This document shows positions 14,748 through 63,660 of a stretch of 64,000 nt of DNA, in pieces. The notes beneath the pieces were generated by a model. That model ran no database searches. It was given only the letters and a program-made list of their open reading frames with translations, and was not told the origin of the DNA. Position 1 is the stretch's first letter; every line of letters begins with the position of its first letter. A program made the position numbers and the translations under genes. The stretch is from a virus, in the IMG/VR virus record IMGVR_UViG_3300037467_001050, positions 32,001 through 96,000 of that record. The stretch is one strand, 5' to 3'.

Positions 14748-14824
14748 CCCGGTGTAGCTCAGTCTGGTAGAGCATGTGGTTCATGCCCACGGAGCCGCTG
14801 GTTCAAATCCAGCCACCGGCACCA
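14748..14824 (+). tRNA. tRNA(CAT), atypical (C1-C72 mismatch, G37)
   Basis: Cloverleaf, TGTGG-TT CAT GC-CCACG, ACCA end; identity (Met, fMet or Ile2) unresolved. Confidence 0.8.
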
Positions 14825-14941
14825 ACTTTCGAGGCGTGGACCCCTCGGGACCTCTCCGGTCCTAAGGCCTCGATCCCACCACGGTCGTGCTCGAACCGTG
14901 GTCCCTGCGCATGCGGGATACGATGAAGGGAAGGGGTGTCC

Positions 14942-15051
14942 GGGAGGGCATGAGGGCGGAGAGCCCCATCGGGCGCGTCGAGCTGAGCGTGCTCAGCTTC
15001 ACCGGCCCGATGCCTTTTGGCTTGGCGGTGAAAATCCAGCCCCTCCCACCA
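14942..15051 (+). ncRNA. 110-nt tRNA-like RNA with a long extended central arm
   Basis: GGGAGGG/CCCTCCC plus ACCA; GGGC/GCCC; ATCGGGC/GCCCGAT capped by AGCTGAG-CGTG-CTCAGCT; GGTGAAAATCC T-loop-like end. Confidence 0.6.
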
Positions 15052-15056
15052 GTTTC

Positions 15057-15140
15057 GAGTGAGATGCCCGGGTGGACGGGCGGGAGGCTGTAACCCTCCT
15101 GGCTATGCCGTGGTGGGTTCGAGCCCTGCCTCACTCACCA
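15057..15140 (+). tRNA. trnY: tRNA-Tyr(GTA)
   Basis: GAGTGAG/CTCACTC-ACCA, GGAGG-CT GTA AC-CCTCC, long variable arm. Confidence 0.88.
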
Positions 15141-15165
15141 AAATTCAAACCTATCCGAGGGCTTC

Positions 15166-15387
15166 ATGGCCACCATCAGCACCACCGTCCATAAGCTCTT
15201 CGTCTCCGACATCACCTCGATCGTCGTGACCGACATCGTCGAGCAGGAGGACGGCTCGTTCGTTCGCGCCGTGCGCTTCTATGGCGACGATGACGCCGGC
15301 AACAAGGACCAGCTCATCGTCGAGGTGAAGGTCACTGCCGCCACCAAGGCGGGCGTTCAGATCCCAGTTCCAGCCTCGGGTTTCTGA
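15166..15387 (+). CDS. small beta-rich hypothetical protein
   Basis: GAGG RBS, phage-like codon usage. Confidence 0.7.
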   Translation: MATISTTVHKLFVSDITSIVVTDIVEQEDGSFVRAVRFYGDDDAGNKDQLIVEVKVTAATKAGVQIPVPASGF

Positions 15388-15578
15388 GGCTCATTCAATC
15401 CCCATCGCGCTCCCGGCTCATCCCCGGTTGAGCGCGATCGCGACGGCCCCAGCCTGCAGCATCCCCGGCACAAGACGGGCAGGGATACCAAAGAGCGCGC
15501 CCCCGCACCTCGCGCCGCCGTCCATCGATCGCGAACCGGCTCCAAGACCGCGTCGCGTCGGCCCATAGGCCGCCACTG

Positions 15579-15608
15579 AGCCCCGGCTTCGCGCCGGGGC
15601 TTTTTTCT
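15579..15608 (+). terminator. intrinsic terminator before the scaffold gene
   Basis: AGCCCCGGC/GCCGGGGCT followed by a T run. Confidence 0.8.
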
Positions 15609-15626
15609 TGCCCAAGATCAGGCGGG

Positions 15627-16559
15627 ATGCCTGATCGTATTTCCGGGATGGAAATGGCACTTCACGCAATTGTCACCGACATCAATACTGTTCCCGAAGC
15701 ACTCCGCACCGAATACACCGAGAAGGACGGGAAGTTCTTCCTCAATGTAGAGCCGGTCGACGGGTTCAAGCTCGAGAACGTGGATGGGCTCGTCAACGCC
15801 CTGAGCGCCGAGCGCACCCTCAAGGACCGAGCCGAAGCTGCTCTCAAGCAGTTCAAGGACATCGATCCGAAGACCGCGCGCTCCGCCATCGAGGCGATCA
15901 CCGCCTACGGTGACCTCACCCCGCAGCAGGTCCAGGCCCTCCAAGAGGAGGTCGCCAATCTGCGCGCCATCGACCCGACCAAGGAAGCCGGCAAGCTCGC
16001 CGAGGCCCAGGTCAGCGCTGCGGTCGCCGCCGCCAAGGCTGAAGCCGAGCGCGTGTTCGGCACCGAGAAGACCACGCTCGCAGAGCAGCTCAACGGCCTC
16101 ACGGCGCTCAACGAGGGCCTGAAGGGTCAGCTCAAGGATCTGCTCGTCGGCAATCAGGTGAAGGCGGAAATCGCCCGCCTGAAGGTCGTGCCCGGCCTCG
16201 AGCCGGCCGCCGAGATGCTCGCCTCCCAGTCGATCCGCACGGTCGAGAAGGACAACGCCTTCCAGGTCGTGGTCATCGACAAGGACGGCAACCCGCGCAT
16301 GAAGCTCGGCGAGAACAACTCGCTCGTGCCGTTCACGGTCACGGACCTGATGGACGAGCTCAAGAAGACCACCCCCGGCCTCTTCCAGGCGGAAGACAAG
16401 GGCGGTGTTGGCATCCAGCCCGGGCGTCACGCTCCGGGCACCGGGGGCATCTCGAACCCCTGGTCGAAGGAGGCCTGGAACCAGACGGAGCAAGCCAAGC
16501 TCCGGCTCTCGAACCCCACCCTAGCCGCTCAGCTCAAGGCCCAGGCCGGCGTCTCCTGA
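15627..16559 (+). CDS. capsid scaffold protein (start may be 15648 or 15654)
   Basis: Directly before the capsid gene; coiled-coil; NPWSKE...NQTEQ tail. Confidence 0.8.
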   Translation: MPDRISGMEMALHAIVTDINTVPEALRTEYTEKDGKFFLNVEPVDGFKLENVDGLVNALSAERTLKDRAEAALKQFKDIDPKTARSAIEAITAYGDLTPQQVQALQEEVANLRAIDPTKEAGKLAEAQVSAAVAAAKAEAERVFGTEKTTLAEQLNGLTALNEGLKGQLKDLLVGNQVKAEIARLKVVPGLEPAAEMLASQSIRTVEKDNAFQVVVIDKDGNPRMKLGENNSLVPFTVTDLMDELKKTTPGLFQAEDKGGVGIQPGRHAPGTGGISNPWSKEAWNQTEQAKLRLSNPTLAAQLKAQAGVS

Positions 16560-16621
16560 TGCCGGCATGACCCTGGCTCGTGCCGGGACGAGGGTGAACC
16601 TCAACAAGAAGAAGAAAACGA

Positions 16622-17608
16622 ATGGCTATTGAGATCACCCAGCTCAAGGACATGATCGTCCCGGAGGAGTGGAACTCCTACATCGAGCTGACCACGACCC
16701 AGAAGAGCGAACTGTTCACCTCGGGCATCGTCCAGGATCTGTCGGCGGAAGTCGGCAATCAGCTGGAAGGCCCGCTGGTCCACATGCCCTACTTCGACGA
16801 CCTCGACAGTGACGACGATCACGAAGAGCAGCAGCTCGACGACGAGGACGACATCGTGGTGGACGGCATCACCACGGGCATGGACGTCGCGGTCAAGACC
16901 GCGCGCGCCAAGTCCTTCGGTTCGACCGACCTCGCCGCCGACCTCTCGGGCGCCGACCCGATCGCCGCGATCCAGAACAAGTTCGCTGGCTGGTGGGCCC
17001 GTCGGTACCAGACCGCTCTGCTCTCCGTGCTCGAGGGCGCGATGGGTTCGGTCGGTATGGAGTCCAACGTGCTCGACATCTCCGGCCTGACCGGCGATGC
17101 CGCGAAGTTCGCGCCTGTCCCCTTCGTCGAGGCCGCGTTCCTCCTGGGTGACGCCGCCGGTGGCCTGACCGCCCTGGCCGTCCACAGCCAGACGCTGAAG
17201 TCGATGGTCCTGGCCGACATGATCACGGTCGTGAAGGACTCGACCACGAACCTCGACATCCCGACGTACATGGGCAAGCGCATCATCGTCGACGACTCCA
17301 TGCCGGTCACCGGCACGGGCGTGGACCGCGTCTACACCAGCTACCTGTTCGGGCCGGGCGCCATCGGCTACGCCACCAAGCCGCTGAAGGTGCCGGTCGA
17401 GGTGGGCCGCAACGCCCTCAAGACCATGGGTCAGGACTACGTCGTCAACAGGAAGCAGTGGGTGCTCCACCCGCGCGGCATCGCCTGGAAGGGCAATGCG
17501 GTGAAGAAGTCCGGTCCGGTCAACGCCGAGCTCAAGAACCCGGCCAACTGGAACCGCGTGTACGACCACAAGCTGATCCGGCTCGTGGCGTTCAAGCACA
17601 AGAACTAA
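16622..17608 (+). CDS. major capsid protein
   Basis: 328 aa after scaffold, highly biased codons, followed by a terminator. Confidence 0.88.
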   Translation: MAIEITQLKDMIVPEEWNSYIELTTTQKSELFTSGIVQDLSAEVGNQLEGPLVHMPYFDDLDSDDDHEEQQLDDEDDIVVDGITTGMDVAVKTARAKSFGSTDLAADLSGADPIAAIQNKFAGWWARRYQTALLSVLEGAMGSVGMESNVLDISGLTGDAAKFAPVPFVEAAFLLGDAAGGLTALAVHSQTLKSMVLADMITVVKDSTTNLDIPTYMGKRIIVDDSMPVTGTGVDRVYTSYLFGPGAIGYATKPLKVPVEVGRNALKTMGQDYVVNRKQWVLHPRGIAWKGNAVKKSGPVNAELKNPANWNRVYDHKLIRLVAFKHKN

Positions 17609-17621
17609 CTTGCAGGAATGT

Positions 17622-17651
17622 GAACGGGGACTTCGGTCCCCGTTCCTTTTT
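17622..17651 (+). terminator. intrinsic terminator after capsid gene
   Basis: GAACGGGGAC-TTCG-GTCCCCGTTC plus T run. Confidence 0.9.
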
Positions 17652-17698
17652 GCAAGCGACATCATGGCCTGCGCGCCGACATTCAGACGGAAGAATTT

Positions 17699-18079
17699 AT
17701 GTTCATGGAAAAGGGTTGGCGCGCACGCCATGCTGCCGCGATGGCGCGAAATGCAAACCGCGCCTCTAACTCCGGCGCCAGCGCCGAACTCACCGCCCTC
17801 CTGCACGAGCGCGAGCTGAAGCTCGCCGCCGCCCGTGAGGCCGAGCGGGCCGGCAAGGCCCCCGTCGGTATGACCACGGCCGCCACGATGCTCGGCGCCG
17901 ACAAGGCGCAGGAGACCGAGGCGCAGGAAGCCGCTCAGGAGGCCCAGGAGGCCGCTCCCGAGGCGCTCGCTTCCGAGACACCGGCCGAGCCAGCCGCGCC
18001 CGCTGTCGAGGCGCCTACCGCCACTGAGGCCGCCACTGCCGCCCCGGCCAAGGGTCGCGGTCGCAAGGCTCACACCTAA
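17699..18079 (+). CDS. Ala/Glu/Pro-rich hypothetical protein
   Basis: 126-aa ORF in head module. Confidence 0.65.
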   Translation: MFMEKGWRARHAAAMARNANRASNSGASAELTALLHERELKLAAAREAERAGKAPVGMTTAATMLGADKAQETEAQEAAQEAQEAAPEALASETPAEPAAPAVEAPTATEAATAAPAKGRGRKAHT

Positions 18080-18094
18080 TCACCGGAGGAGACC

Positions 18095-18520
18095 GTGGCG
18101 CATTACGCGACCGAGGAGGATATTGTCGCCCTCTACGGGATGGCGCAGCTCGTCATGGTCTCCGACCGGGACAACGACCGCCAGCCCGACCCGGGCGTCG
18201 TCGATGCCGGCCTCCAAGCTGCCGACGACACGATCAACCAGTACCTGTCGTCCCAGTACACCGTGCCGATCACGCCGGTCCCCGGCTCCCTGCGCAAGCT
18301 GGCCATCGACATCGCCCTCTACACCATGGCCCTCGGGCGCGCGGTTCGCACCGAAGAGATGCGGATCCGCTACGAGGACGCCATCGCCACGCTGAAGCTG
18401 ATGGCCAAGGGCACGATCGGCATCGGCTTGCCGCCCGTCGACAGCGACGGCGACGGCACCCCGGACACCAATCCGAACCGCACCCGCAGGGGCCGCGTGA
18501 TCGACATCGGCCGCGGGTAA
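18095..18520 (+). CDS. head-tail adaptor, Mu gp36/DUF1320-like
   Basis: YATEEDI, YTVPI, DIALY, RYEDAI..LK motifs. Confidence 0.85.
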   Translation: MAHYATEEDIVALYGMAQLVMVSDRDNDRQPDPGVVDAGLQAADDTINQYLSSQYTVPITPVPGSLRKLAIDIALYTMALGRAVRTEEMRIRYEDAIATLKLMAKGTIGIGLPPVDSDGDGTPDTNPNRTRRGRVIDIGRG

Positions 18521-18523
18521 GCC

Positions 18524-19060
18524 ATGGCCGAGCAAGGTTCGCTCCTGAAGGTCAGGATCGACACCCGGGCGCTTCAGAAGTTCAGCAACAAGATCGGCGA
18601 GCTCGCCAAGCGGCTCAACGACTACGAGCCCTTCGTCGACGACGCAGCCGCGTACATGGTCAACGTGACCAGAAACCGGATCCTGCGCTCGAAGCGAGGA
18701 CCCGACGGGGAGGCCTGGGCTCCGCTCTCCGAGCTGACCAAGGACCTGAAGGGGTCGAGCACGATCCTGTTCGACAGCGGCGAGCTGGCGCGGTCGATCT
18801 TCGACCAGAAGACGCGGCGCGGCTTCGAGATCGTGGCCGGTGCCGACTACGCCCCGTACATGCACTACGGCGTCAGGCCGGAGAAGCACGGCGGCTCGCT
18901 CCTCAACAAGGAAGGACGGCGCGTTCAACCGCGCGGCGGCATTCCTGCACGCCCATTCATGGGCCTCTCCCCCGAGAACGTCCGGCGCATCACCAAGATG
19001 CTGCGCGGGCACATCGCCGGCGAAGAAGAGGCCTCCGCCTACGGCGAGGGTTTTGAATGA
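18524..19060 (+). CDS. virion morphogenesis (neck) protein, Mu gpG-like
   Basis: PDGEAWAPLS, YAPYMHYG, IPARPFMGLS. Confidence 0.88.
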   Translation: MAEQGSLLKVRIDTRALQKFSNKIGELAKRLNDYEPFVDDAAAYMVNVTRNRILRSKRGPDGEAWAPLSELTKDLKGSSTILFDSGELARSIFDQKTRRGFEIVAGADYAPYMHYGVRPEKHGGSLLNKEGRRVQPRGGIPARPFMGLSPENVRRITKMLRGHIAGEEEASAYGEGFE

Positions 19061-19647
19061 TCGACGACATAGACGCCAACGGCGCGATCGTCGGCTACCG
19101 CACGCGCGTGGTCGAGGCGATCCGCGCTCAGTTTCCCGACTTCGTGACGGTCGACTGGTACGACGGCCTCTTCGACGAGGACGACGTGCGCCAGTGGGGC
19201 GGCGGCGCGCCGGCCTGCTACGTGGCCGTGCTGAACGTGCCGACCACGCACCACACCACGGGCGAGACCAACGGCAACGTGCGCGTCGTGTGCGCGGTCA
19301 TCACCGCAGACCGGGATTACCCGCGTCAGCACGACCCCGAGAACTACAGGTTTCTCGAAGGCATCCACACCTTCGCCAACCTCAACAAGTTCGGCGACCC
19401 GAACGCGGGCGCGGCCACCAACGGCTCGTTCAAGCGTCTGCGCCACCCGCAGATGCGCCGCGAGGGGATCGGCATCGGTGTCGTCGAGTGGGAGAGCAAC
19501 CTCACCTTCGGGGTGAACACCGCCCTGGAGCGCGACAGCATCCGCGACGAGGACGGTGCGCTGATCCCGATGCCGAAGGACATGGACGCGCAGATGCGCG
19601 ACTACCTCGGCTACAGCGAGACCTACACCTTCGATCCTGAGGAGTAG
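19057..19647 (+). CDS. probable tail terminator/completion protein
   Basis: Position between neck and baseplate genes. Confidence 0.55.
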   Translation: MIDDIDANGAIVGYRTRVVEAIRAQFPDFVTVDWYDGLFDEDDVRQWGGGAPACYVAVLNVPTTHHTTGETNGNVRVVCAVITADRDYPRQHDPENYRFLEGIHTFANLNKFGDPNAGAATNGSFKRLRHPQMRREGIGIGVVEWESNLTFGVNTALERDSIRDEDGALIPMPKDMDAQMRDYLGYSETYTFDPEE

Positions 19648-19650
19648 CCG

Positions 19651-20313
19651 ATGCGCCAGCTCCTCTCGATCCAGCGGCAGATCCAGGATCTGTTCGCGAT
19701 GGTGTTCAACCAGCGCCGGGTCGGCAAGATCACCGAGGTCAAGTTCGACCAGGAGAAGAAGCGCTGGTTCGCCAAGTTCCAGTCCGGCAAGGGCGACGAG
19801 AACGAGACCTTCAAGAGCGACTGGCGGCCGTGGAAGAGTTTTTCCAACGGCACGATCAAGATCTCGCTGCCGCCCCGCGTCGGCCAGATCGTGGCGCTGA
19901 CCGCGCTCGGCGGCCGTCCTGAGCTCGGGATCCTCGAGCCCTACCACAACGACCCGGACAACGTCTCGCCTCACGACAAGGAGGACGAGCTGTTCCTGCG
20001 CATCGAGAAGCCCTCGAAGGGCTCCGAGAGCGGCAAGACCAAGGACGAGACCCTCGACCTCCACTTCACCAAGGACGGCTCGAAGATCTCGATCGGATCG
20101 ACCCAGCACGGGCTCACCAAGGACGCCCAGTCGATCAAGACCAAGAACGACAGCATCGACACCGAGACCCACACCGCCAAGGCCTCCAAGAGCCACTCCG
20201 TCACGACCAAGGAGCATGCGGTGAAGGCGCAGAACCGGACCGTCGAGGCCGGCACCACCACCATCAAGAGCGGCACCTACAGCCTGACAGGGAAGACGCT
20301 CATCAACTGCTGA
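19651..20313 (+). CDS. baseplate spike protein, P2 gpV-like
   Basis: RVGKITEV, PPRVGQIV OB-fold start, beta-repeat tail. Confidence 0.8.
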   Translation: MRQLLSIQRQIQDLFAMVFNQRRVGKITEVKFDQEKKRWFAKFQSGKGDENETFKSDWRPWKSFSNGTIKISLPPRVGQIVALTALGGRPELGILEPYHNDPDNVSPHDKEDELFLRIEKPSKGSESGKTKDETLDLHFTKDGSKISIGSTQHGLTKDAQSIKTKNDSIDTETHTAKASKSHSVTTKEHAVKAQNRTVEAGTTTIKSGTYSLTGKTLINC

Positions 20314-20322
20314 AGGAGCGTC

Positions 20323-21162
20323 ATGGCCGGGTTCATCACGTTGCCGCAAGCGATCATGTCGGTTGTGGGCGGGATCCCGGTCCAGCCCGCAGGCCCGATG
20401 ACGATCATCGAGAAGCTGCGCGCCGCCAAGAGCATGCTGCCCGGCGACATCAGCGGCATTCTCGCCAAGGTCCTCCAAGAGGGGCCGCAGGCGCTGCTGC
20501 AGAACCCGATCGCCAGCATCACGGGCCAGCTGCAGGGCCAGCTCGGCGGACTGGTCAGCCAGATCCAAGGGCTCTCCGGCATGGGCCTCGGCGGCCTGCT
20601 CTCGGCGATCTCGGGAACCGGCGGCCTCCAGTCCGCGCTCGGTAACCTGACAGGCGTGGCCAACTCCCTATCCGGTCTTGCCGGATCCGGGCCGTTCTCG
20701 TTGATCGATGCGATCGGCCACGCGAACATCGTCGGCATGCTCGGCTCGGCCATGCCGGCCAATCTGAGCATCGCCAACGCGATGGGCCCGGTCCTGATGG
20801 GCTCCGGCCTCAACTCCATGCTGGGTCAGGTCCAGGGCATCGCCTCGGCGATCACCGCCGGCACCATCGACCCCGTCGCCGCCGTCGCGCAGGTGACGGG
20901 CATGACCAGCACCATCAACGGCGTACTCGATGCCAGCGCCTACGCCTTCAGCACCGTCCAGAACGCGGTGGTCGGCATCGCCCAGACCGCCGGCCTGATC
21001 TCGCTGGTCGCGTCCGGCCCGGCCGATTTCGGTCAGATCGCCAACATGCTGATCCGCGACGAGATGAAGCCGGCCATCCAGGCCGCGATGGACGAGCAGA
21101 TCCGGCCCGTGGACACGCCCATCGACCTGGGTCTCGGCGACGACGGCGACTGGGGTGGCTGA
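20323..21162 (+). CDS. Gly/Ala-rich hydrophobic hypothetical protein
   Basis: 279 aa between gpV and gpW. Confidence 0.7.
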   Translation: MAGFITLPQAIMSVVGGIPVQPAGPMTIIEKLRAAKSMLPGDISGILAKVLQEGPQALLQNPIASITGQLQGQLGGLVSQIQGLSGMGLGGLLSAISGTGGLQSALGNLTGVANSLSGLAGSGPFSLIDAIGHANIVGMLGSAMPANLSIANAMGPVLMGSGLNSMLGQVQGIASAITAGTIDPVAAVAQVTGMTSTINGVLDASAYAFSTVQNAVVGIAQTAGLISLVASGPADFGQIANMLIRDEMKPAIQAAMDEQIRPVDTPIDLGLGDDGDWGG

Positions 21163-21202
21163 ACGAAACACCGGCCGACAGGCCCAACAAGAAGAAAACG
21201 CC

Positions 21203-21520
21203 ATGGAACTGAAGGACTACATCACCATCGCGGTGATCCACCGGCATGGCATCCGGATCGAGCCGGGCACGCGCCTGCAGCTCTCCGACGCCGAGGTGAA
21301 GTACCAGCGCCACGCGCTGCTCGAGATCACCGACGAGGTGCCCGAGGAGCACCGCGCCGAGTTCGAGGCGCTCGAAGTGCAGGGGCTTGCCGAAGAGGCC
21401 GGCGCCGTCGAGGCGTCCGAGCCGGAGCCCGCTCCCGAGCCCGTGAAGCCGCACCGCTCCCGCAAGAAGGTCCACGAGGCCAAGGCGATCGAGGCCGCGG
21501 ATGGCGACGACCAGCACTGA
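21203..21520 (+). CDS. hypothetical protein
   Basis: A-rich leader, acidic C-terminus. Confidence 0.65.
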   Translation: MELKDYITIAVIHRHGIRIEPGTRLQLSDAEVKYQRHALLEITDEVPEEHRAEFEALEVQGLAEEAGAVEASEPEPAPEPVKPHRSRKKVHEAKAIEAADGDDQH

Positions 21521-21863
21521 TGAGCCGATCATCGATGTCGACCGCGACACCGGCGAGCTGATCTCGGGCTGGCCGCGCGTCCGCAAGAGCATCTTCACGA
21601 TCCTTCGCACCCGCCTGAAGACGCGCCTGATGCGTCTGTGGTGGGGCTCGGACTTCCTCGACCTGCAGGACAAGCCCGGCAACGACGAGGTGATCTTCAA
21701 GTCACTCGGCGCAGCGATCGTCGCGGTCAACGACTACGAGCCGGAATTCAAGATCACGCGCCTGATAGTCGGCGGTAACCGCGTCGCGGGCCAGACCGAC
21801 ATCACCGTGGAGGGGTCTTACAAGTTCGACGGCGTGCCCCGGAAAATCAAAGACACGATGTAG
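21501..21863 (+). CDS. baseplate protein, gpW/gp25-like
   Basis: RTRLKTRLMRLWWGS and YEPEF motifs. Confidence 0.85.
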   Translation: MATTSTDEPIIDVDRDTGELISGWPRVRKSIFTILRTRLKTRLMRLWWGSDFLDLQDKPGNDEVIFKSLGAAIVAVNDYEPEFKITRLIVGGNRVAGQTDITVEGSYKFDGVPRKIKDTM

Positions 21864-21896
21864 CGCTTGCGGACACGCAAACGCCAAGGGTTTGCA

Positions 21897-22838
21897 ATGT
21901 CCTCATTCGACTACTCCTCCTACTCTGGATCGCCCGCGCTCTACATCGACTTCTCTCGCCTCCCGCCACCGAAGGTGATCGAGGAGATCGACTACGAGAA
22001 ACTCCTCGCGATCTACCAGGGTCGCGTCGTCAACAAGCTCCCTACGCTGGAGCGCGCGACCAAGCTCGAGCAATCGCCGACAAACGTCATTTTGCAGACG
22101 GAGGCCTATGGCGAGATGATGGTGCGCGCCCGCGTCAATGCGGCGGCGCGCGCGATCATGCTGCCGTTCGCCACCGGCTCGGACCTCGACGTGCTCGCAG
22201 CCTTCTATGACGAGGCGCGTCCAGCCCTCGTCGATACCCCGCGCGGGACCGTCGATGAGTACCCGGAAGACTGGCTCGATGATGCGAGCTTCCGGCGCAT
22301 CGTGCAGCTCTCACCGGAGAGCTTCTCCACCGCGGGTGCCGAAGGCGCCTACATCTATCACTGCCTGAAGGCAGATCCGGCCAACATCCTCGACGCCTCA
22401 GCCAGCCGCGTGGATCTGCGTGGCGGCGTGCGCTGCGCCCTGATGGGTCGGAACGCGAACCCGGCGGTCACGCCCGAGACGATCGCCAAGGTCCGCGAGC
22501 GCCTCAACCGCAAGAACATCAAGCCGCTGACCGACACGCCCTACGTGGTCGGCGCCAAGGTCGTGCCGGTCGAGATCGACGCCCTCGTCACACTGTTCGA
22601 CGGCCCCGACGCCGCGCTGGTGAAGGCCGACATCGTCGCGGCCTTCCAGAACCTGCGCCAGCGCGTGGCTCTGCTCGGCCGGGATCTCACCCGGGCCGCG
22701 ATCGACCGGGCACTGATGCAGGAGGGCGCCCAGAACGCCCGGATCAAGTCGCCGCTCACCGACACCGTCGTCGGCAATGATGCCTGCGTCTGGATCACCA
22801 AGGCGACCGTCAACTTCGAGACATTTCGGGCGAGCTAA
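21897..22838 (+). CDS. baseplate protein, gpJ-like
   Basis: LPPPKVIEEIDYE, ATGSDLD, STAGAEGAY, PLTD motifs. Confidence 0.92.
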   Translation: MSSFDYSSYSGSPALYIDFSRLPPPKVIEEIDYEKLLAIYQGRVVNKLPTLERATKLEQSPTNVILQTEAYGEMMVRARVNAAARAIMLPFATGSDLDVLAAFYDEARPALVDTPRGTVDEYPEDWLDDASFRRIVQLSPESFSTAGAEGAYIYHCLKADPANILDASASRVDLRGGVRCALMGRNANPAVTPETIAKVRERLNRKNIKPLTDTPYVVGAKVVPVEIDALVTLFDGPDAALVKADIVAAFQNLRQRVALLGRDLTRAAIDRALMQEGAQNARIKSPLTDTVVGNDACVWITKATVNFETFRAS

Positions 22839-22841
22839 GCC

Positions 22842-24050
22842 ATGACCGCACCCGTTCGTGATCTCGACCACATCCTGCCCAAGAGCGCCAGCGCCTACGA
22901 GCGCGTGCTCGGTCTGAATGTCGAACGCCTCCTGGAACTCGACACCGACCGCATCCGCAACCTGTGGAACCCGTGGACCTGTGATGCTGACGATCTGCCC
23001 TACCTCGCGTGGGCGTTGTCGGTCGACGTTTGGGACACACGCTGGCCGCTGACCAAGAAGCGCTCGGTCGTCGCCAACGCCTTGAAGCATCACCGCATCA
23101 AGGGCACGCAGGCCGGCATCGAGACTTATCTCGGTCTCGTCGACACCAAGGTCGTCCAGACCATCACGCCGGGTGTGAAGCTGTTCTCCGGGCCGTCGCT
23201 CACGCGCGAGCAGCGCGAGGCATGGCTCTCGAAGCTGCCGCAGATCCGGATCTACCGAGCCTACAGCCGCGGCACTCCGGGGTCGCGCCTGTTCTCGGGT
23301 GGACAGCTCCAGAGCCGGTTTCGCGAGGGACGCTTTCCGCAACCCTCAGAGGCCGCCAAGCGGCTGCGACCGCGCGTCGACTGGGTGGTCAACGACGCTG
23401 CCACCGACGCCACGGTGCTGCCCCTGGACGTCAACACATACCAGATCTTCATCAACACCAAGGATCAGGGTTCGATCTTCTCGAACCAGTCCCCGAAGCG
23501 GAAGCGGTTCTTCCTGCCATCGAAGGCCGCGAAGCGGATCCTGACGGTCACGCCGGTATCGACGTCACCGTGGCGCACAGCGATCGGTCCGACGCTGACC
23601 CCGATCTCGTCGGAGCCCGAGCTCGTCGCCCAGCGACACCAGGCCGGACCCGGCGTCTTCACCGGAACCCGACCGAAGAAGCACATCCTCGTGCCCTCGC
23701 GCGCCCGCTTCCACCTGTACCAGCGGTTCGCTGTCGATGACGGATCGGCGCCGGCTAAGCGCCCGTCGATCCGGTTCTCAGGTGTTGGTCGCTACGGCTA
23801 CCCGGGTCACAAGGCCGAGTTGACCTTGCAGCTGCGGGCTCCGATCGACACGCGCAAGGCGCGCATCGGCGGCCAACCGACCGCGGCTCAGCGCTTCCTG
23901 ATGCCTCACAACGGCGAGCCGTTACGGCGCGCCAAGGCGGCCATCGTCGCCTCCAAGAGGCTCTCGGACAAGATCGTCGTCCGCACCGACACCTCGCGCG
24001 GGATCACCGCCGGCCTGCCTTTCTACGCCGGCGACACGTACCTCGCCTGA
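22842..24050 (+). CDS. baseplate/tail protein, P2 gpI-like with C-terminal extension
   Basis: LPYLAWALSVDVWD and HRIKGT motifs. Confidence 0.88.
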   Translation: MTAPVRDLDHILPKSASAYERVLGLNVERLLELDTDRIRNLWNPWTCDADDLPYLAWALSVDVWDTRWPLTKKRSVVANALKHHRIKGTQAGIETYLGLVDTKVVQTITPGVKLFSGPSLTREQREAWLSKLPQIRIYRAYSRGTPGSRLFSGGQLQSRFREGRFPQPSEAAKRLRPRVDWVVNDAATDATVLPLDVNTYQIFINTKDQGSIFSNQSPKRKRFFLPSKAAKRILTVTPVSTSPWRTAIGPTLTPISSEPELVAQRHQAGPGVFTGTRPKKHILVPSRARFHLYQRFAVDDGSAPAKRPSIRFSGVGRYGYPGHKAELTLQLRAPIDTRKARIGGQPTAAQRFLMPHNGEPLRRAKAAIVASKRLSDKIVVRTDTSRGITAGLPFYAGDTYLA

Positions 24051-24127
24051 TCCATCCGTTCACCGCCAACCACCGACCCGGGGATCCAACCCCGGGCGGT
24101 CGCGCATGCGTGCGCCTAGAGGAACCC

Positions 24128-52889: not shown

Positions 52890-52893
52890 ACTC

Positions 52894-53718: not shown

Positions 53719-53771
53719 AACTTGTAGCTCCCGTATAATGCTTGCCGAATTGCCCGTGATCGCTTCCGCCC

Positions 53772-54050: not shown

Positions 54051-54103
54051 TGCTTGCCGCCCTCCTTAATTACTTGCCGAAATATCCGCAATCCCATCCG
54101 CCA

Positions 54104-54307: not shown

Positions 54308-54349
54308 CGTATTCCCTCTGCTAAACCGTTCGAGTGCTACCGTCTCCGT

Positions 54350-54613
54350 CTAACCGGCCTCTGCTCCAGCGACGGCATGGTCTAGGCGCATCCAGTCCTG
54401 CGTGGTTAGGTTTCCGGTGCTGATCGACACGTCGCCGTTGTCGTTGAACACACACGCCGAGAACGGCCGAGCGGCCTCGCGCAGCTCGGCAATGTCGGCC
54501 TCAAGCTCTGCGATATAGGCCAACCTCGCATCGAGCGAGTTGTCCAGCACTTGGTTAAGGCCGCGCAGGTGCTCCACCTGCCCGGTATCGGGGTGCTCAA
54601 AGATGTCCATCAT
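54350..54613 (-). CDS. hypothetical protein
   Basis: GGAGG RBS. Confidence 0.6.
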   Translation of the reverse strand: MMDIFEHPDTGQVEHLRGLNQVLDNSLDARLAYIAELEADIAELREAARPFSACVFNDNGDVSISTGNLTTQDWMRLDHAVAGAEAG

Positions 54614-54650
54614 GTCCTCCCTGGTATGGCGGAAATCCCAGAAATCGAAC

Positions 54651-54884
54651 TCACCGAGGATGGTCGGGGCACAGGTCGCCCGCGCAGTCGGGCGAAATGC
54701 ACATGGACGGGCAGCGGCAGAAGTTGTCGGCCGGCAGGTCGCCCTTCTTCCGAGCGTAGGCCTCCTCGCGCATGTCATCGAAGGCCTCCTTGCACGTCGC
54801 TGAGCACCACGATCCGACGAAGCTCTCGCTGTCGTAGGCCTGCCCGTGGATTTCGCACTTGCAGTTCACGCAGACGTTCGACAC
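54651..54884 (-). CDS. Cys-rich small protein
   Basis: Ten Cys in 77 aa; GAGGAG RBS. Confidence 0.6.
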   Translation of the reverse strand: MSNVCVNCKCEIHGQAYDSESFVGSWCSATCKEAFDDMREEAYARKKGDLPADNFCRCPSMCISPDCAGDLCPDHPR

Positions 54885-54889
54885 TGCCG

Positions 54890-55033
54890 CTACTCCTCAC
54901 CATCCGGCACGTAGCCGAGCAGGGCAGCCGCGTTGTCGGAGACGATCTCGACGGTCTCCGTCCCGTCGGGCCACTGGATGGTGAGCGCCCAGTCGCCGGT
55001 CAGCGTATTCGCGGCCTCGATGATCTTGTGCAT
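54890..55033 (-). CDS. small hypothetical protein (47 aa)
   Basis: Translated by hand; GAGGAG RBS. Confidence 0.55.
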   Translation of the reverse strand: MHKIIEAANTLTGDWALTIQWPDGTETVEIVSDNAAALLGYVPDGEE

Positions 55034-55056
55034 GGTCAGCTCTCCTCTCGGCCTGC

Positions 55057-58476
<3,420 letters not shown>

Positions 58477-58489
58477 AGGGATCCTTGGT

Positions 58490-58696
58490 TCAGGCTGCTT
58501 GCTGGGTTTCGCGCTCGATGATGCGGGCCACGAGCGCCTCATCGAGGTCCGAGGCCGGCTCGGCGCCGATCTCGATCCTCTGCTCGTCCTCGTCCCAGAC
58601 GAGGATCGGCACCATGTCGATGCCGAAGATTTTCTTGACCTTGTCGACGTAGGCGTCGGCGATGCGCTTGGCCCGGCCCTTCGTGTCGTAGTTCAT
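58490..58696 (-). CDS. hypothetical protein (start uncertain)
   Basis: 3' part of ORF 58490..58825. Confidence 0.5.
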   Translation of the reverse strand: MNYDTKGRAKRIADAYVDKVKKIFGIDMVPILVWDEDEQRIEIGAEPASDLDEALVARIIERETQQAA

Positions 58697-58755
58697 CGGC
58701 AGGCCCTCGAGGTAGGACACCTGCCGAGCACACTCCCTGGCGAGGCCCGTGAGCG

Positions 58756-59007
58756 TCAGGTCGTGGGAGGCCAGTCGACGTGGATTTGGTTCAACTCCAT
58801 TGCCTCCCGCAGGTACTGGATCCACTGCTCGTCACGCTCCCTGAGACGGGCCTGGATCAGCTGCTCCACGGCCTCGGTGATGGCCTCTGCGGCCTCGATG
58901 GAGAAGGGCGCCACGCCGAATGGCGACCGAGACTGAAGAAGGGTTCGCGAGAGAGCGCGAGCCCGTCGGAACGCCTCGGTGGCGGCATGTGCAAGCAGGC
59001 TGGCCAT
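58756..59007 (-). CDS. hypothetical protein
   Basis: Directly downstream of a motif copy. Confidence 0.55.
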   Translation of the reverse strand: MASLLAHAATEAFRRARALSRTLLQSRSPFGVAPFSIEAAEAITEAVEQLIQARLRERDEQWIQYLREAMELNQIHVDWPPTT

Positions 59008-59046
59008 TTGCATTTTATTACTTGCATTCCTGCAAACGCGCAAGCG

Positions 59047-59358
59047 TCAAGCAGCGTTCCGTGCTGAGAGGCCGTGCTCTTCGCGCCACGCCCGGGCCTT
59101 GGGCAGGAGATCCTTGTCGATCACCTTCTCCTCGTCGGGCTCGAGCATGGCCTGGACGAGCAGCGCGTCCGCCAACCTCGATTGGCAGACCTCGTTTTTC
59201 GTCGGGACGCAGCCCTGTGTCATGTCGGCTCGGATCTCGAAGAGCTCGGCCTCCTCGCCGAACACGGCCGCGATCTGTTCCCGCGGAAGACTAGCTTCCA
59301 ACCCACACTTCGTGCAGACGATCCTCACTTCGGGGAGCGGCCAGTCCTTCAAATTCAT
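59047..59358 (-). CDS. Zn-binding hypothetical protein
   Basis: CTKC plus two further Cys. Confidence 0.65.
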   Translation of the reverse strand: MNLKDWPLPEVRIVCTKCGLEASLPREQIAAVFGEEAELFEIRADMTQGCVPTKNEVCQSRLADALLVQAMLEPDEEKVIDKDLLPKARAWREEHGLSARNAA

Positions 59359-59575
59359 CGATCGCCCTCACCAGCATGTCGAAAATCTTCGGGTCGTAGA
59401 CCCACTCGCCGCCCTGTCCGCGCCACCGGCGCCGGGACCGCCGGGACAGCTTCATCCACGGCGGGGTCTGGCGGCTGTCGAGCAGCCGGCGAACCAGGTA
59501 CCGGACGTTGAATTCCTTCCACATCCGGTCGCTGACCAGGAGGGTTTTTTCGCCCCAGATCTTCAGCTCGGTCAT
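59291..59575 (-). CDS. basic hypothetical protein
   Basis: ATGA-coupled to the deaminase; overlaps next gene. Confidence 0.5.
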   Translation of the reverse strand: MTELKIWGEKTLLVSDRMWKEFNVRYLVRRLLDSRQTPPWMKLSRRSRRRWRGQGGEWVYDPKIFDMLVRAIDEFEGLAAPRSEDRLHEVWVGS

Positions 59576-60147
59576 GCTGCGCACCCGCAGGCGGCGGCCG
59601 GCGCGTCGTCGTTCGTGGCGCCCTGCTCGTACCAGAGATCGTCCGGGGTCAGGACCGGCTTGAAGGTCCCGAGATGGCCGTCGTAGAGGTCGATGACGAT
59701 GCCTGCCTTGAGCATGTTCATCGCCGCCCAGCGCATGTTCTGAGCCCAGCGCAGGGGCACCATGTTGTTGTGGGCCACGACCCGGGTGATCTTCTTCTGG
59801 ATGATCTCCGAGGCGCAGTTGCAGCACGGGGGCAGACCGGAAACGTAGATCGTGTGCCCGGCGAGGCTCTGGTCCTTCGCGAAGCCAATCGCGTTCTCCT
59901 CCGCGTGCCGGACTGTGGCGATCTTGTAGTCGCGGTCTTGGTACAGCTCGGGAGCGTCGGACAGACCCTGCGGGAAGCCGTTGAAACCGATCGAGGCCAG
60001 CGTGCGGTCCGGGCGCACGAGGACGGCGCCGATCTTCGAGGACGGATCTTTCGACCAGCTGCCGACCAGCCGGGCCATTTCCAGGAAGCGCAGATCCCAC
60101 TTCGGATCCGCATCGGGCAGGATCAGGAACTTGGCGAGGTCCAGCAT
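59572..60147 (-). CDS. dCMP deaminase family protein
   Basis: SKDPSSKIGA, GFNGFP, HAEEN, PCCNC. Confidence 0.92.
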   Translation of the reverse strand: MLDLAKFLILPDADPKWDLRFLEMARLVGSWSKDPSSKIGAVLVRPDRTLASIGFNGFPQGLSDAPELYQDRDYKIATVRHAEENAIGFAKDQSLAGHTIYVSGLPPCCNCASEIIQKKITRVVAHNNMVPLRWAQNMRWAAMNMLKAGIVIDLYDGHLGTFKPVLTPDDLWYEQGATNDDAPAAACGCAA

Positions 60148-60149
60148 GG

Positions 60150-60593
60150 TCAGGCTCCGATGAGCGTCATCTGATCGGGATGGGTGGACGTGCGGCGTGA
60201 GGCACGGCGCGCGACGATCTCGCGGCTCTCTGCGAGCCTCTGCAGATCCAGCCGGGCGGATTGCTGCGGCTGGCTGCGCCTGCGGACTCGGGTGCAGCCC
60301 CTCGCCAGGACGCGGGTGCCGCGCAGACCTAAGGGCTCCATCACCAGCCGGAGGTTGGCCGGCTTCCACTCCTTGCCGCTCTGGGTCCGGTAGCCGAGCT
60401 CGTTGATGATCGCCGTGATCTGCCGGTAGGTCATTCCGGGCTTGTGGTGGTGCTTGAGCGCCTGCTCCAGCGTCATCGGCTTCCGCTGGCGCGGGGGAGG
60501 GGGCTCATGAACGGGCTCTGCGGGCTGCTGGATCGGTGCGCGTGACGGCGCCTCGATCGCTCTGACGACGGCCTTGAGGATGCGACGGAGCAA
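60150..60593 (-). CDS. stand-alone Recombinase-type DNA-binding domain protein
   Basis: TYRQITAIINELGYRTQSGKEWKPANL; no catalytic resolvase domain. Confidence 0.7.
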   Translation of the reverse strand: MLRRILKAVVRAIEAPSRAPIQQPAEPVHEPPPPRQRKPMTLEQALKHHHKPGMTYRQITAIINELGYRTQSGKEWKPANLRLVMEPLGLRGTRVLARGCTRVRRRSQPQQSARLDLQRLAESREIVARRASRRTSTHPDQMTLIGA

Positions 60594-60595
60594 GA

Positions 60596-61282
60596 TCAGG
60601 CTTCCTTTCCGGTTGCGTGGTTGTAGCCGCTGGAGTCGATGCAGGCGGGCAGCTTGGTGACCCGCCCGGCAGCGATGACCTCGGCGATCAGGTCCTGCTC
60701 GGTCTTGCCGGCGGGTGGTGGCGGGAGAGAGCGCTTCCGCCGGGTCGGGATGGTGCCGAAGTTCTCGACGAAGCTGCCCTTGGCAGGCGGGGAGGCATCG
60801 GGCGTCCGCATCGAGCGGAACGAGCCGCCCGAGCTCTTCAGGCCCAGCCGGTCGAAGGTCTTCACGAGTGTGGCGGCATAGAACTTGCCGCCACGTTCGG
60901 TCTTGATCCCGCGGTTGTTCAGCTCGGTGGCGATGCCATTGAGGGTCGTGGTCCCGCCCTCGAAGATCTCGATGATCGTGGCGTCGAGCGGATCCGGGGC
61001 CGGCGGCGCCTCCGGGAGGCGCTCTTCGATTTCAGCCTCAGGGGTCGGTTCGACTGCTGCGGGCAGGATCGCTGCAGCTGGAGAGAGCAGGATCTTCGGT
61101 TCGAGCTTCACCTGGGTCAGGGCTGCGAGCGGCTTCATCCACTCCGGAAGCTCTCCGGTTGCCGGCTCGTAGTCGGGTTCGCGCGTCTCGCCGAGGCCGT
61201 CCGCGATGCGCTCCAGGGCGTCAGCGATGCGCCCGACATTGGCGAAGAAGGGTGTCAGATCCACCGCCGTCCCCATTAGCAT
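60596..61282 (-). CDS. Recombinase-type DNA-binding domain protein with extra N- and C-terminal regions
   Basis: TLNGIATELNNRGIKTERGGKFYAATL. Confidence 0.7.
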   Translation of the reverse strand: MLMGTAVDLTPFFANVGRIADALERIADGLGETREPDYEPATGELPEWMKPLAALTQVKLEPKILLSPAAAILPAAVEPTPEAEIEERLPEAPPAPDPLDATIIEIFEGGTTTLNGIATELNNRGIKTERGGKFYAATLVKTFDRLGLKSSGGSFRSMRTPDASPPAKGSFVENFGTIPTRRKRSLPPPPAGKTEQDLIAEVIAAGRVTKLPACIDSSGYNHATGKEA

Positions 61283-61298
61283 TTTAGATCATAAGCCG

Positions 61299-61709
61299 TT
61301 AGCATTCCTGCAAGCGTTCGACAAGGCCTGTATGGTCGACGGTCAGAACCTCCATCCTCGCGCGTTGAGCGCGCTCGATCATGTCGGCCGTTCCTTCGTT
61401 ACCAGGAAGGGCCACCAGCGCGCCGGGCCTCCAGCGGGTGATCATGGCCTGGTTGCGCATCCGACCAGCCATCGCCCGACCCCAGCGCGCCCAGTCCGCC
61501 GGCATGGTCTCGTAGGGCACGCCGCGGGCGATCGCCCATTGCAGCCCCCACCAGTCCCCGCCACCGACGGTCTTGCCCTTCACCCGGCTGCGCTGTCCGC
61601 CCTCGATCACGCCGCAGATGCCGCCCAGCATCACGTCGGCCTGATCGAGAGCCCGCATCGCCATCTCGCCATCGGTGAAGTCGCGCCCGCCGGCGACGAT
61701 GGTGATCAT
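61299..61709 (-). CDS. SLOG-superfamily protein (DUF2493/YspA-like)
   Basis: IVAGGRDF, IEGG, GGD, ADW, RNQAM, PGNEGTADM. Confidence 0.85.
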   Translation of the reverse strand: MITIVAGGRDFTDGEMAMRALDQADVMLGGICGVIEGGQRSRVKGKTVGGGDWWGLQWAIARGVPYETMPADWARWGRAMAGRMRNQAMITRWRPGALVALPGNEGTADMIERAQRARMEVLTVDHTGLVERLQEC

Positions 61710-62125
61710 CGCCAGTTCATGTCGGAGAATGAGACCCGCATCTGCAGCTGGTCGTCGTTCTGTATGCTTGCAGCGGACGCTGGGTCCAGGAGCCACCCAG
61801 CGAGCCGAGCGCGATCCTCGACATCCCAGATGAGCCATCGGCGCTGCTCGTGCTGATACAGCCCGTCGCGACCATAGCCGTCCGGCGTGGTGACATAAAA
61901 GTCGCCAGCGACGTGATCCGGGCCCGGCTTCCAGAAAGCGCCGAAGGTGTCGGAGCTGCGCAGCTGCGGCATCAACTCGGCAACGACGAAGTCGTTCGGC
62001 TCGCCGTGCTCGGGTAGGAAGCCGCCTAGGATCTGGAGGCCATCATGGATGTTCCCGCCGCCCAACTCCTGGAAGATCGTCCCGACCGGCAGCGTCTTGA
62101 ACTCGGCCCAGCTGACGACCCGCAT
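61706..62125 (-). CDS. hypothetical protein
   Basis: Coupled ORF. Confidence 0.65.
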   Translation of the reverse strand: MRVVSWAEFKTLPVGTIFQELGGGNIHDGLQILGGFLPEHGEPNDFVVAELMPQLRSSDTFGAFWKPGPDHVAGDFYVTTPDGYGRDGLYQHEQRRWLIWDVEDRARLAGWLLDPASAASIQNDDQLQMRVSFSDMNWR

Positions 62126-62424
62126 CAGTTCGGCCTCCGCTGCTGATTGTTTAGCTCGGCCGACAGCTCCCGCATCAGCCGGACTGCCTCGCTGCTGAAG
62201 CCAGGCCTGCCGGTCTCGGAGCGCTTGATCAGACCCACCAGCATCGCCTGCAGGGCCATTGCCTGCATCTCGTCGATCTCGACCGGGTGCGTCTTGAAGG
62301 GTGTCCGCAGGCCCTCGATCGTCTGCGCCGCATCGGGCTTGCCCAGCTGCAGAGCCGAGTTGGAGATCATGCCGAGCAGGTCGTCGAACAGAGCGGCGTC
62401 GGTGGCCTTCATCGTGATCTTCAT
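62125..62424 (-). CDS. hypothetical protein
   Basis: GGAG RBS. Confidence 0.6.
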   Translation of the reverse strand: MKITMKATDAALFDDLLGMISNSALQLGKPDAAQTIEGLRTPFKTHPVEIDEMQAMALQAMLVGLIKRSETGRPGFSSEAVRLMRELSAELNNQQRRPN

Positions 62425-62428
62425 GGGG

Positions 62429-62821
62429 TCACTCCAGGATGCACCGCCACTCGGGCGGCAGGATGCAGTTGTCGGACGCGCCACGGAACAGCGGCGCGAT
62501 CTGGTCATGGGTGTAGCCGGCAAGCCCGGTACCGATCGGGGTCACCTTGAACAGCAGGTTCGGATGGCTCTCTGCGAAGAGCAGGAAGCGGACGACATGC
62601 CACTCGATCTCCCACAATGGGAGGGTAGTCAGTGGGCCGGTCCGGCCTCCGCGCTTGGTCGGGATGGCGTAGCTGAAGCCCTGAAGGCCCTCGTCCTGCC
62701 CGTAGATTGCCCCGTGGTTCTGGACAGCGAAAAGGGCAGCGCCCTTGCCGTGTCTCCCGTGGGGCTTGTTCGAGCCGAAGACGAATATGTCGCGTCCGAC
62801 GTGCCCGTAGTCGGAGTTCAC
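62429..62821 (-). CDS. A1S_2505-like phage protein (macrodomain-related candidate)
   Basis: IFVFGSN, HGKGAA, SYAIPT, FKVTPIGTGLAGY. Confidence 0.8.
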   Translation of the reverse strand: MNSDYGHVGRDIFVFGSNKPHGRHGKGAALFAVQNHGAIYGQDEGLQGFSYAIPTKRGGRTGPLTTLPLWEIEWHVVRFLLFAESHPNLLFKVTPIGTGLAGYTHDQIAPLFRGASDNCILPPEWRCILE

Positions 62822-63660
62822 TGGACGACGCCGACTGTCGCTTCCTCGGTTTCAGGGTTGGCGGCGTCGAACACCACCGCTACCCGGTTCTTCACCGTCA
62901 CGAATGGCGGCATCTCGAGGCAGGCCACATCCGAGCGCATCAGCTTGGCGCCAGGCTCAGGCCGGAACTTCTCCGGGATCGCAGCCCGCTCCTCCTCCGT
63001 CAGCTCCCGCTCGCCTGAAACGCGCCGCAGGTAGGTCCCGCGCTTGAAGAAGACGGGATAGGCATCGAAGTCGACACCGGCCTCTCTGAGCATCGCGCGC
63101 ATGCCATCGACCGAAACACCGTGCAGCTGCTTCGCCGAGAAGTGGTGAAAGGCCGCCATGCTGACGGCGTTGCGGGTCGCATCGAACTCGCGCCACAGGA
63201 AGGCGTTCGCACCTTCCTCGCGGCTCGGCAGGTTGAAGACGCGGGCATCGAAGTGCGGCAGGCGACTGGCGTAGGCAGCGAACTCGGGGTCGTGGAAGGT
63301 TGCCACTGTCCGGCCGAATGACGCGGTCGCCAACCCGGCGAGCACCGAGCACAGCTTCTGCACCTTGGCGTCGAAGAACATCTGCGAGCCCGGCACGTCG
63401 GCAGGAACGTGCCAGATCAACGAGATCTCGTCGGACTGGGTGTAGCCGAGCCGCGCGCCTGCCTCCCTGATCAGGTGGCGGGTGGTCTCCCGCATGGCGA
63501 ATGACATGCGCTCGTCGAAGGGCCGGCGCATCCCGCGCGTGAACCGCGAGAAGCCGCGCCCATCGATGCGGGCGTAGACGGGCAGGTGCGGGTCGAGGCG
63601 GCGGCCGGTCTCGACGGCCTCGTACCCCTTCAGTCGATCCCCAAACGGATCCTTGCTCAC
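62818..63660 (-). CDS. tRNA-His guanylyltransferase-like protein (Thg1-like, 3'-5' polymerase)
   Basis: ARIDGRGFS, YTQSDEISL, HFDARVF, FLWREFDATRN, FKRGT. Confidence 0.9.
   Translation of the reverse strand: MSKDPFGDRLKGYEAVETGRRLDPHLPVYARIDGRGFSRFTRGMRRPFDERMSFAMRETTRHLIREAGARLGYTQSDEISLIWHVPADVPGSQMFFDAKVQKLCSVLAGLATASFGRTVATFHDPEFAAYASRLPHFDARVFNLPSREEGANAFLWREFDATRNAVSMAAFHHFSAKQLHGVSVDGMRAMLREAGVDFDAYPVFFKRGTYLRRVSGERELTEEERAAIPEKFRPEPGAKLMRSDVACLEMPPFVTVKNRVAVVFDAANPETEEATVGVVQ

Follow-up and report, generated by a model that had tools for sequence, protein, structure and literature searches.

A phage-encoded, bacterial-type Thg1-like protein as a candidate for general tRNA 5'-end repair, with acceptor-stem mismatches as a separate trait of the phage tRNAs

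IMG/VR virus record IMGVR_UViG_3300037467_001050 holds a phage genome of 122,894 bp (122.9 kb), rated complete by CheckV, of which we analysed bases 32001-96000; this 64,000-nucleotide stretch (GC 64.6%) is called the window below, and positions refer to it unless another genome or contig is named. The window encodes a Thg1-like protein (TLP) and, at some distance, a small island of tRNA and tRNA-like genes, several of which have mismatched acceptor stems. In the reading we favour, which we judge about evenly balanced between right and wrong, the TLP would be a generic tRNA 5'-end repair enzyme working beside the RNA ligase RtcB. As a 3'-5' RNA polymerase, it would activate a 5'-monophosphate end with ATP or GTP and then add Watson-Crick-templated nucleotides, with the 3' acceptor strand as template, thereby restoring 5'-truncated tRNAs. 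Its targets would be host tRNAs and probably the phage's own as well, and it would be one accessory component of an RNA-repair kit to which RtcB and the island, with its tRNAs and tRNA mimics, also belong. The acceptor-stem mismatches, which a first-pass annotation had connected with the enzyme, are a separate trait of the tRNAs of this phage lineage, and our comparisons gave no support for a link to the TLP.

Identity of the phage enzyme

Judged by profile matches, motifs and predicted fold, the product of the gene at 62818-63660 is a genuine bacterial-type TLP and a member of the Thg1 superfamily, as the first-pass annotation had recognized. The gene is intact, and its product matches Pfam PF04446 at 95.3 bits (cut-off 29.2) over profile positions 3-130 of 130 and PHROG 4717, labelled 'tRNA-His guanylyltransferase', at 7.5e-75. 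In phmmer searches the top solved relative was the Bacillus thuringiensis TLP (BtTLP; 4KGK) at 8e-32, with Candida Thg1 reached only at 4.6e-9. An AlphaFold (AF2) model of the phage protein has a predicted local distance difference test score of 91.4 and a predicted template modelling (TM) score of 0.86. Foldseek superposed this model on 4KGM/4KGK with TM scores of 0.85-0.88; the top eight chains were all BtTLP, and every match at E <= 0.001 was a Thg1 or TLP chain.

The phage TLP is probably catalytically active, to judge from its active-site residues. The three metal-binding carboxylates D33, D77 and E78 are invariant across 24 homologues, and the RIDG (D33) and SDE (D77, E78) motifs align with those of BtTLP and Candida Thg1; where Candida Thg1 has the eukaryotic HINNLYN motif, the phage protein reads ATRNAVS. 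Alignment also places Arg46 of the phage TLP, invariant in 24 close homologues, opposite Lys43 of BtTLP, a residue reportedly specific for ATP-dependent 5' activation. This substitution may alter the choice of activating nucleotide.

A putative role in general tRNA 5'-end repair

The case for repair begins with the biochemistry of the family. All bacterial and archaeal TLPs tested to date favour the templated repair of 5'-truncated tRNAs of any species, and such templated 3'-5' addition is established for BtTLP, MaTLP and IhTLP (PMC6471195). A repair role is strengthened by the presence of RtcB in the same genome. Aligned to Pyrococcus horikoshii RtcB, the phage homologue has the His nucleophile motif and keeps HGSRGLG and PHGAGR; its N-terminal third is divergent and only weakly alignable. 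The genome also encodes an RNase T-like exonuclease. Thus, of the earlier suggestion that the gene serves tRNA 5'-end repair or editing, the repair half is plausible in view of the family and of RtcB, whereas the editing of mismatched phage tRNAs found no support in the comparative tests described below.

Neither the enzyme nor the general idea is new among phages. A phage Thg1 was noted by Anantharaman et al. 2010 (PMC2904730), and Iyer et al. 2021 counted it among the genes with which jumbo phages repair RNA, suggesting that it restores 5' ends (PMC7824862). The source-phage TLP is an ordinary member of this known phage family, for which 5'-end repair has thus already been proposed. The family occurs in 164 GenBank phage records and in more than 575 IMG/VR contigs, and more than 3,000 proteins match the TLP at E <= 1e-20; among the matches listed, bacterial carriers include Enterovirga, Mesorhizobium, Myxococcota and Planctomycetota. 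The nearest phage TLPs, at 45-51% identity, belong to Caulobacter, Brevundimonas, Ruegeria and Phaeobacter phages. A protein search returned homologues at 69-72% identity, which were not among the matches listed from alignment-based metagenome and genome scans. Neither the TLP nor the tRNA(CAU) discussed below had a close relative in single-protein and exact-pattern scans of IMG/VR.

Several observations weigh against the repair reading. The source phage belongs to a siphovirus-like lineage with two further members, its closest cultured relative Bradyrhizobium phage BDU-MI-1 (121 kb; 67% identity in the terminase, 55% in the portal and 58% in the capsid protein) and contig G408 (108.9 kb with direct terminal repeats; portal 53%). 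Of these three only the source phage has the TLP, which is therefore dispensable for the lineage. Across complete phage genomes RtcB accompanies the TLP only weakly (6/20 TLP-positive vs 2/15 TLP-negative genomes, not significant), and among 240 TLP loci no gene neighbour is conserved. To our knowledge, moreover, no activity, substrate or phenotype has been reported for any phage TLP, and we know of no host defence that truncates tRNA 5' ends.

BDU-MI-1 encodes RtcB and tRNAs without the TLP, and G408 lacks RtcB, tRNAs and TLP alike; on this anecdotal basis of three genomes, the TLP appears as the latest addition to a graded tRNA/RNA-repair kit. The more ambitious proposal of a single counter-defence kit, made up of the TLP, RtcB and the remodelled tRNAs and mimics of the island, strikes us as very improbable. 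Our data show the family membership, fold, catalytic motifs and genome context of the phage TLP together with the comparative statistics, and from these we infer its enzyme activity, its substrates and any counter-defence role.

Other substrates, or no selected function

The strongest competitor, unlikely in our estimate but to be taken seriously, is that the TLP acts mainly on something other than tRNA, such as 5'-recessed structured RNAs of phage or host, among them tRNA mimics with extended helices or small RNAs, or that it leaves 5'-adenylylated or -guanylylated ends. Neither bacterial TLPs nor Dictyostelium DdiTLP4 have an established in vivo role, and it has been suggested that they act on RNAs other than tRNA (PMC6471195). 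Consistent with this proposal, five viral genomes that carry a TLP and are at least 90% complete gave no tRNA match (84, 87, 49 and 316.7 kb, and one of 37.7 kb with terminal repeats); three of them were re-scanned end to end with ARAGORN and again yielded no tRNAs; phage TLPs therefore cannot exist solely to serve phage tRNAs. The invariance within the clade of R46, in place of the ATP-specific K43 of BtTLP, and the unusual tRNA-like RNAs of the source phage point the same way. One of these RNAs, the Ser-like mimic at 14649-14745, has an acceptor helix extended to 11 bp without any acceptor mismatch (minimum free energy [MFE] -45.5 kcal/mol, z = -2.7), and ARAGORN assigns it a 2-base anticodon. 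The 6-nt anticodon loop of this mimic has a parallel in a tRNA-like gene of BDU-MI-1 (L172:386-462), which occupies another place in the genome. However, every TLP assayed to date repairs truncated tRNAs, the TLP-tRNA structures 5AXM and 5AXN, which are among the fold matches, show recognition of the acceptor and T arms, and the sequence points to no particular alternative substrate.

That the TLP gene was gained recently and is a mere passenger, without a selected function in the source phage, is improbable. Its presence in one of three lineage members and the lack of conserved neighbours would fit such an origin, as would the wide movement of the family among phages and bacteria (the viral contigs counted above; Myxococcota, Planctomycetota and Alphaproteobacteria). 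Yet the open reading frame (ORF) is intact with all catalytic residues kept, its codon composition is that of the phage (GC content at third codon positions 0.86, typical of the phage's genes), and overlaps of 4 nt connect it with the ORFs on either side, as would fit co-translation. When viral genomes with tRNAs and a completeness of at least 90% were drawn at random, three of 18 had a TLP, which argues for recurrent selection. The overlapping ORF downstream (62429-62821) is not a conserved TLP partner, being absent from all 240 other TLP loci searched by tblastn.

Acceptor-stem mismatches and 5' editing

The whole genome contains four tRNA genes of Rfam grade and one further tRNA-Tyr gene called by ARAGORN, whose only Rfam match is sub-threshold (tRNA-Sec model, 25.5 bits). 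The acceptor mismatches pointed out in the first-pass annotation, C1·C72, A4·A69 and U6·U67, are real features of the gene sequences in that each is flagged as non-canonical by cmscan and drawn as mismatched by ARAGORN. The gene with A4·A69 has a 20-nt insert where RF00005 has 5; in the ARAGORN structure it is a Val(UAC) tRNA whose extra arm is long. Three of the five genes thus have at least one acceptor mismatch, against 11.7% of 854 phage tRNAs (p = 0.013). ARAGORN additionally called a 98-nt 'tRNA-Ala(GGC)' at 16434-16531 on the minus strand; with several mismatches, no Rfam match and a position antisense inside the scaffold gene, this call is very probably false.

These mismatches had suggested that the TLP might edit phage tRNAs in the manner of protist mitochondria, replacing C1 of the tRNA(CAU) by a G1 templated on C72. 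If the canonical register holds, C1·C72 is a real mismatch; TLPs do copy from the 3' strand, and in Dictyostelium mitochondria exactly this step is performed by DdiTLP3 (PMC6471195). Despite these attractions, we consider editing highly unlikely. Two of the three mismatches in the source phage lie at positions 4 and 6, outside the positions 1-3 covered by known 5' editing, and only one is at position 1. No candidate 5' nuclease appeared among the Pfam matches for about 40 phage ORFs; we know of no enzyme identified as removing mismatched 5' nucleotides, even in mitochondria.

The comparison across phages, which had been put forward as a check on the idea, turned out negative. The TLP-positive sample comprised tRNA regions from about 37 viral genomes; a further sample consisted of about 115 viral stretches drawn by a generic T-arm pattern, with TLP status checked for the 45 richest in tRNAs, and the TLP-negative phages phiCbK and Karma completed the set. 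ARAGORN structures were the basis for scoring the acceptor stems. Among 511 unique non-CAU tRNAs of TLP-positive phages, positions 1-7 held 8, 5, 4, 4, 12, 16 and 11 mismatches, respectively, or 1.1% per position at positions 1-3 vs 2.1% at positions 4-7, so that no 5'-proximal excess exists. Mismatches at 1:72 in non-CAU tRNAs were in fact rarer in TLP-positive phages (8/511, 1.6%) than in TLP-negative ones (5/99, 5.1%; odds ratio 0.30, p = 0.044), and among CAU tRNAs the difference was not significant (11/33 TLP-positive vs 7/36 other tRNAs).

Individual lineages tell the same story. The TLP-less BDU-MI-1 has C5·U68 in tRNA-Asn and U4·U69 in tRNA-Met; mismatch-rich tRNAs are therefore a habit of the lineage independent of the TLP. 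An additional copy of tRNA-Ile(GAU), in which U1·U72 is mismatched and A73 follows, is found in TLP-positive CcrPW and a further TLP-positive contig, and likewise in TLP-negative phiCbK and Karma (CcrKarma). Across these Caulobacter phages the U1·U72 pair is kept though the remaining stem has diverged, and from this pattern it looks to be selected, independently of the TLP. A blastn search with the Caulobacter-phage tRNA cluster gave generic tRNA matches only. The TLP-positive genomes without tRNAs described above likewise give the editing link no support.

Register and scaffold of the tRNA(CAU)

The gene at the centre of the editing idea admits other explanations. Once the genomic G at 14747 is allowed into the fold, the MFE structure has G(-1):C72 as its closing pair and one C of the CCC run bulged out, at -30.5 kcal/mol vs -29.9 kcal/mol for the C1·C72 register; with a difference of only 0.6 kcal/mol, C1·C72 is one of two equally good readings, which counts against editing. 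It could also be a homopolymer assembly error. The gene belongs to a scattered class of viral tRNA(CAU) with the rare loop UUCAUGC, in which 1:72 may be G:C, U:A, C·A (with three G:C pairs), U·U or C·C. One member (L446/L460) has the same 3' strand, CACCGGC, paired with GCCGGUG (G1:C72), where the source-phage gene reads G-CCC-GGUG; with loop and 3' strand shared, G1 would be the expected nucleotide, a point in favour of editing. No orthologous tRNA was found in the lineage relatives, BDU-MI-1 having a different CAU tRNA with G1:C72 and G408 no tRNAs.

Within Rhizobiales genomes the gene is most similar to tRNA-Pro(CGG/UGG), at 75-77% identity, with C1, A73, G37 and the D arm common to both. 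What we take to be the identity elements of the Escherichia coli prolyl-tRNA synthetase (G72, G35 and G36) are all changed, to C72 and a CAU anticodon. By sequence, it looks as though a tRNA-Pro scaffold had been remodelled and were now read through a CAU anticodon.

Its likeness to initiator tRNA is partial. The 1:72 mismatch, an initiator tRNA(fMet) feature and a known formylase determinant (PMC5389676), is present, as is C3:G70; the initiator pairs G2:C71 and A11:U24 are replaced by C2:G71 and C:G. Its anticodon-stem pairs are U29:A41, G30:C40 and G31:C39 vs the three G:C pairs of the initiator, of which the middle one alone can suffice in E. coli (PMC5389676), and the UUCAUGC loop with G37 is atypical. 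Among phage CAU tRNAs generally, 18/69 have a 1:72 mismatch, of the kinds C·U, U·U, G·A, A·A, C·A and A·C. Nearly all of these others have initiator-type acceptor stems (NGCGGG- or NGCAGG-type), and most have an initiator-type D stem (GAGC/GCTC or GAGA/TCTC) and GG:CC at the base of the anticodon stem. For the 1:72 mismatch of the source-phage tRNA, a part in identity or evasion on a remodelled, tRNA-Pro-like (initiator-like) scaffold, or a register artefact, is a likelier explanation than use as an editing substrate.

The canonical role on tRNA-His

Least probable of all is the canonical role, addition of G-1 to tRNA-His of the host or of a different host range, since the phage lacks tRNA-His and the presumed Rhizobiales host has a tRNA-His without G-1 and with A73, which TLPs extend poorly (PMC6471195). 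ARAGORN and Rfam detected no tRNA-His in the complete genome, extending what the first-pass annotation had noted for the window, and its view that the classic role is not needed agrees with the nearest cultured relative infecting Bradyrhizobium. The hosts of the closest TLP phages belong to Caulobacterales and Rhodobacterales. A tRNA-His without G-1 is characteristic of these two orders as well as of Rhizobiales (PMC3064791). The improbability of the canonical role here fits the view of TLPs as general 5'-end repair enzymes (PMC6471195).

The label of tRNA-His guanylyltransferase given to the family by all databases would favour the canonical role, as would the occurrence of tRNA-His(GUG) within 6 kb of the TLP in bacterial loci (6 of 35 tRNAs in 80 loci) and of two TLP-positive viral contigs whose tRNA-His has C73, T at -1 and G-1 unencoded (L178:9772-9846, minus strand; L259:3907-3980, plus strand). 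However, about 12 of 17 tRNA-His genes in TLP-positive phages, read by eye from the sequences, already encode G-1, and the association of TLPs with a tRNA-His lacking an encoded G-1 is mixed and based on small numbers.

Two further observations concern bacterial genomes. tRNA-His(GUG) is the most frequent tRNA near bacterial TLP genes (L328-L407), a bias not seen in viral or metagenome loci. In Mesorhizobium sp. SP-1A, contig 2 positions 954354-957419 (L411) hold 10 tRNA genes packed into 3 kb. Acceptor mismatches occur in several of these genes, which include a tRNA-His with G1·U72 and no G-1; this array, about 90 kb from the TLP gene of that genome, may be a prophage or other mobile element.

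Genome setting and feature coordinates

The lineage is related to BDU-MI-1, which has the same gene order around the tRNA site, and it is from this similarity that a host in Rhizobiales is inferred. One stretch chosen as a candidate phage attachment site (attP) had no match in 301 genomes of the order. The plus-strand structural block, within which the tRNA island lies, is flanked by minus-strand early blocks, and the TLP gene is located in an early block of replication and nucleotide-metabolism genes. The coordinates of these and other features are collected in Table 1.

Table 1. Features of the source phage and related tRNA genes in other viral sequences (window positions unless a genome or contig is named)
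Feature	Location	Strand	Remarks
tRNA-like gene	13490..13581	plus	A4·A69; about 15 extra nt in anticodon/variable region; RF00005 52 bits
tRNA-Trp(CCA)	13664..13740	plus	U6·U67 mismatch; RF00005 64.1 bits; ARAGORN
Ser-like type-II tRNA mimic	14649..14745	plus	6-nt anticodon loop; no encoded CCA; RF00005 36.7 bits
tRNA(CAU)	14748..14824	plus	C1·C72; A73; encoded CCA; anticodon loop UUCAUGC (G37); RF00005 59.9 bits
tRNA-Tyr(GUA)-like gene	15057..15140	plus	ARAGORN; perfect 7-bp acceptor stem; MFE z = -2.9
Structural block		plus	terminase, portal, tRNA island, scaffold protein, SPP1-gp13-like capsid protein
ORF downstream of TLP gene, overlapping	62429..62821	minus	130 aa; PHROG 2072, function-unknown family
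Thg1-like protein (bacterial-type TLP)	62818..63660	minus	280 aa; GTG start; Pfam PF04446 and PHROG 4717
RtcB RNA ligase	genome 111162-112568 = L083:16162-17568 (outside window)	minus	468 aa; PF01139 98.8 bits
ProQ/FinO domain fused to ribosomal bL12 C-terminal-like domain	L082:8794-9804 / L083:7492-8848 (outside window)	minus	listed jointly with the TerC/TerB genes
TerC- and TerB-family genes	outside window, phage early region		listed jointly with the preceding gene
tRNA-Ile(GAU) with U1·U72	L470:4874-4948		phiCbK
tRNA-Ile(GAU) with U1·U72	L472:5000-5074		Karma
tRNA-Ile(GAU) with U1·U72	L184:10950-11024
tRNA-Ile(GAU) with U1·U72	L185:16297-16372		CcrPW
tRNA(CAU) with UUCAUGC loop	L415:59-135
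tRNA(CAU) with UUCAUGC loop	L445:3051-3127
tRNA(CAU) with UUCAUGC loop	L446:8487-8560
tRNA(CAU) with UUCAUGC loop	L460:10120-10193
tRNA(CAU) with UUCAUGC loop	L464:9365-9438

Implications and comparison with known systems

The physiological role of bacterial-type TLPs is still unsettled, and phages of hosts whose tRNA-His lacks G-1 are natural cases that exclude the canonical role. The source phage adds one more example, with an RtcB partner, and does away with an appealing notion that lacks support, namely that the purpose of phage TLPs is the editing of mismatched phage tRNAs. Cultured sister phages with and without the gene (CcrColossus or CcrPW vs phiCbK) could make the role of the TLP testable. 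If the counter-defence kit were nevertheless real, it would be the first pathway of 5' tRNA editing or repair shown outside eukaryotic organelles.

Among characterized enzymes, BtTLP (4KGK/4KGM) is the closest counterpart of the phage TLP. In both, RxDG and SDE are the catalytic motifs, and a TLP-type motif stands where HINNLYN would be; however, they are only about 30% identical, and the phage protein has Arg46 where BtTLP has Lys43. The C-terminal 70 or so residues of the phage protein are aligned with 4KGM/4KGK by Foldseek (about 260 columns), whereas the phmmer alignment stops near residue 212. The eukaryotic Thg1 enzymes of yeast, human and Candida (3OTB, 3WBZ) have the fold and catalytic carboxylates in common with the phage TLP, but they are much less similar, possess the HINNLYN anticodon-recognition motif that it lacks, and act on a tRNA-His substrate that the phage does not encode. 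Dictyostelium DdiTLP3 and the protist mitochondrial 5'-editing systems belong to the same superfamily, and the hypothetical chemistry, templated replacement of a mismatched 5' nucleotide, would be identical. The signature of protist editing, many tRNAs with mismatches confined to positions 1-3, is, however, absent from TLP-positive phages and from the source phage. Finally, the other phages of PHROG 4717, among them Pseudomonas phage 201phi2-1, Caulobacter phages CcrColossus and CcrPW, and Brevundimonas, Bacillus and Vibrio phages, encode enzymes of the same family (44-51% identity); the source phage differs from them in that, at 123 kb, it is not a jumbo phage and has only 4-5 tRNA-like genes.

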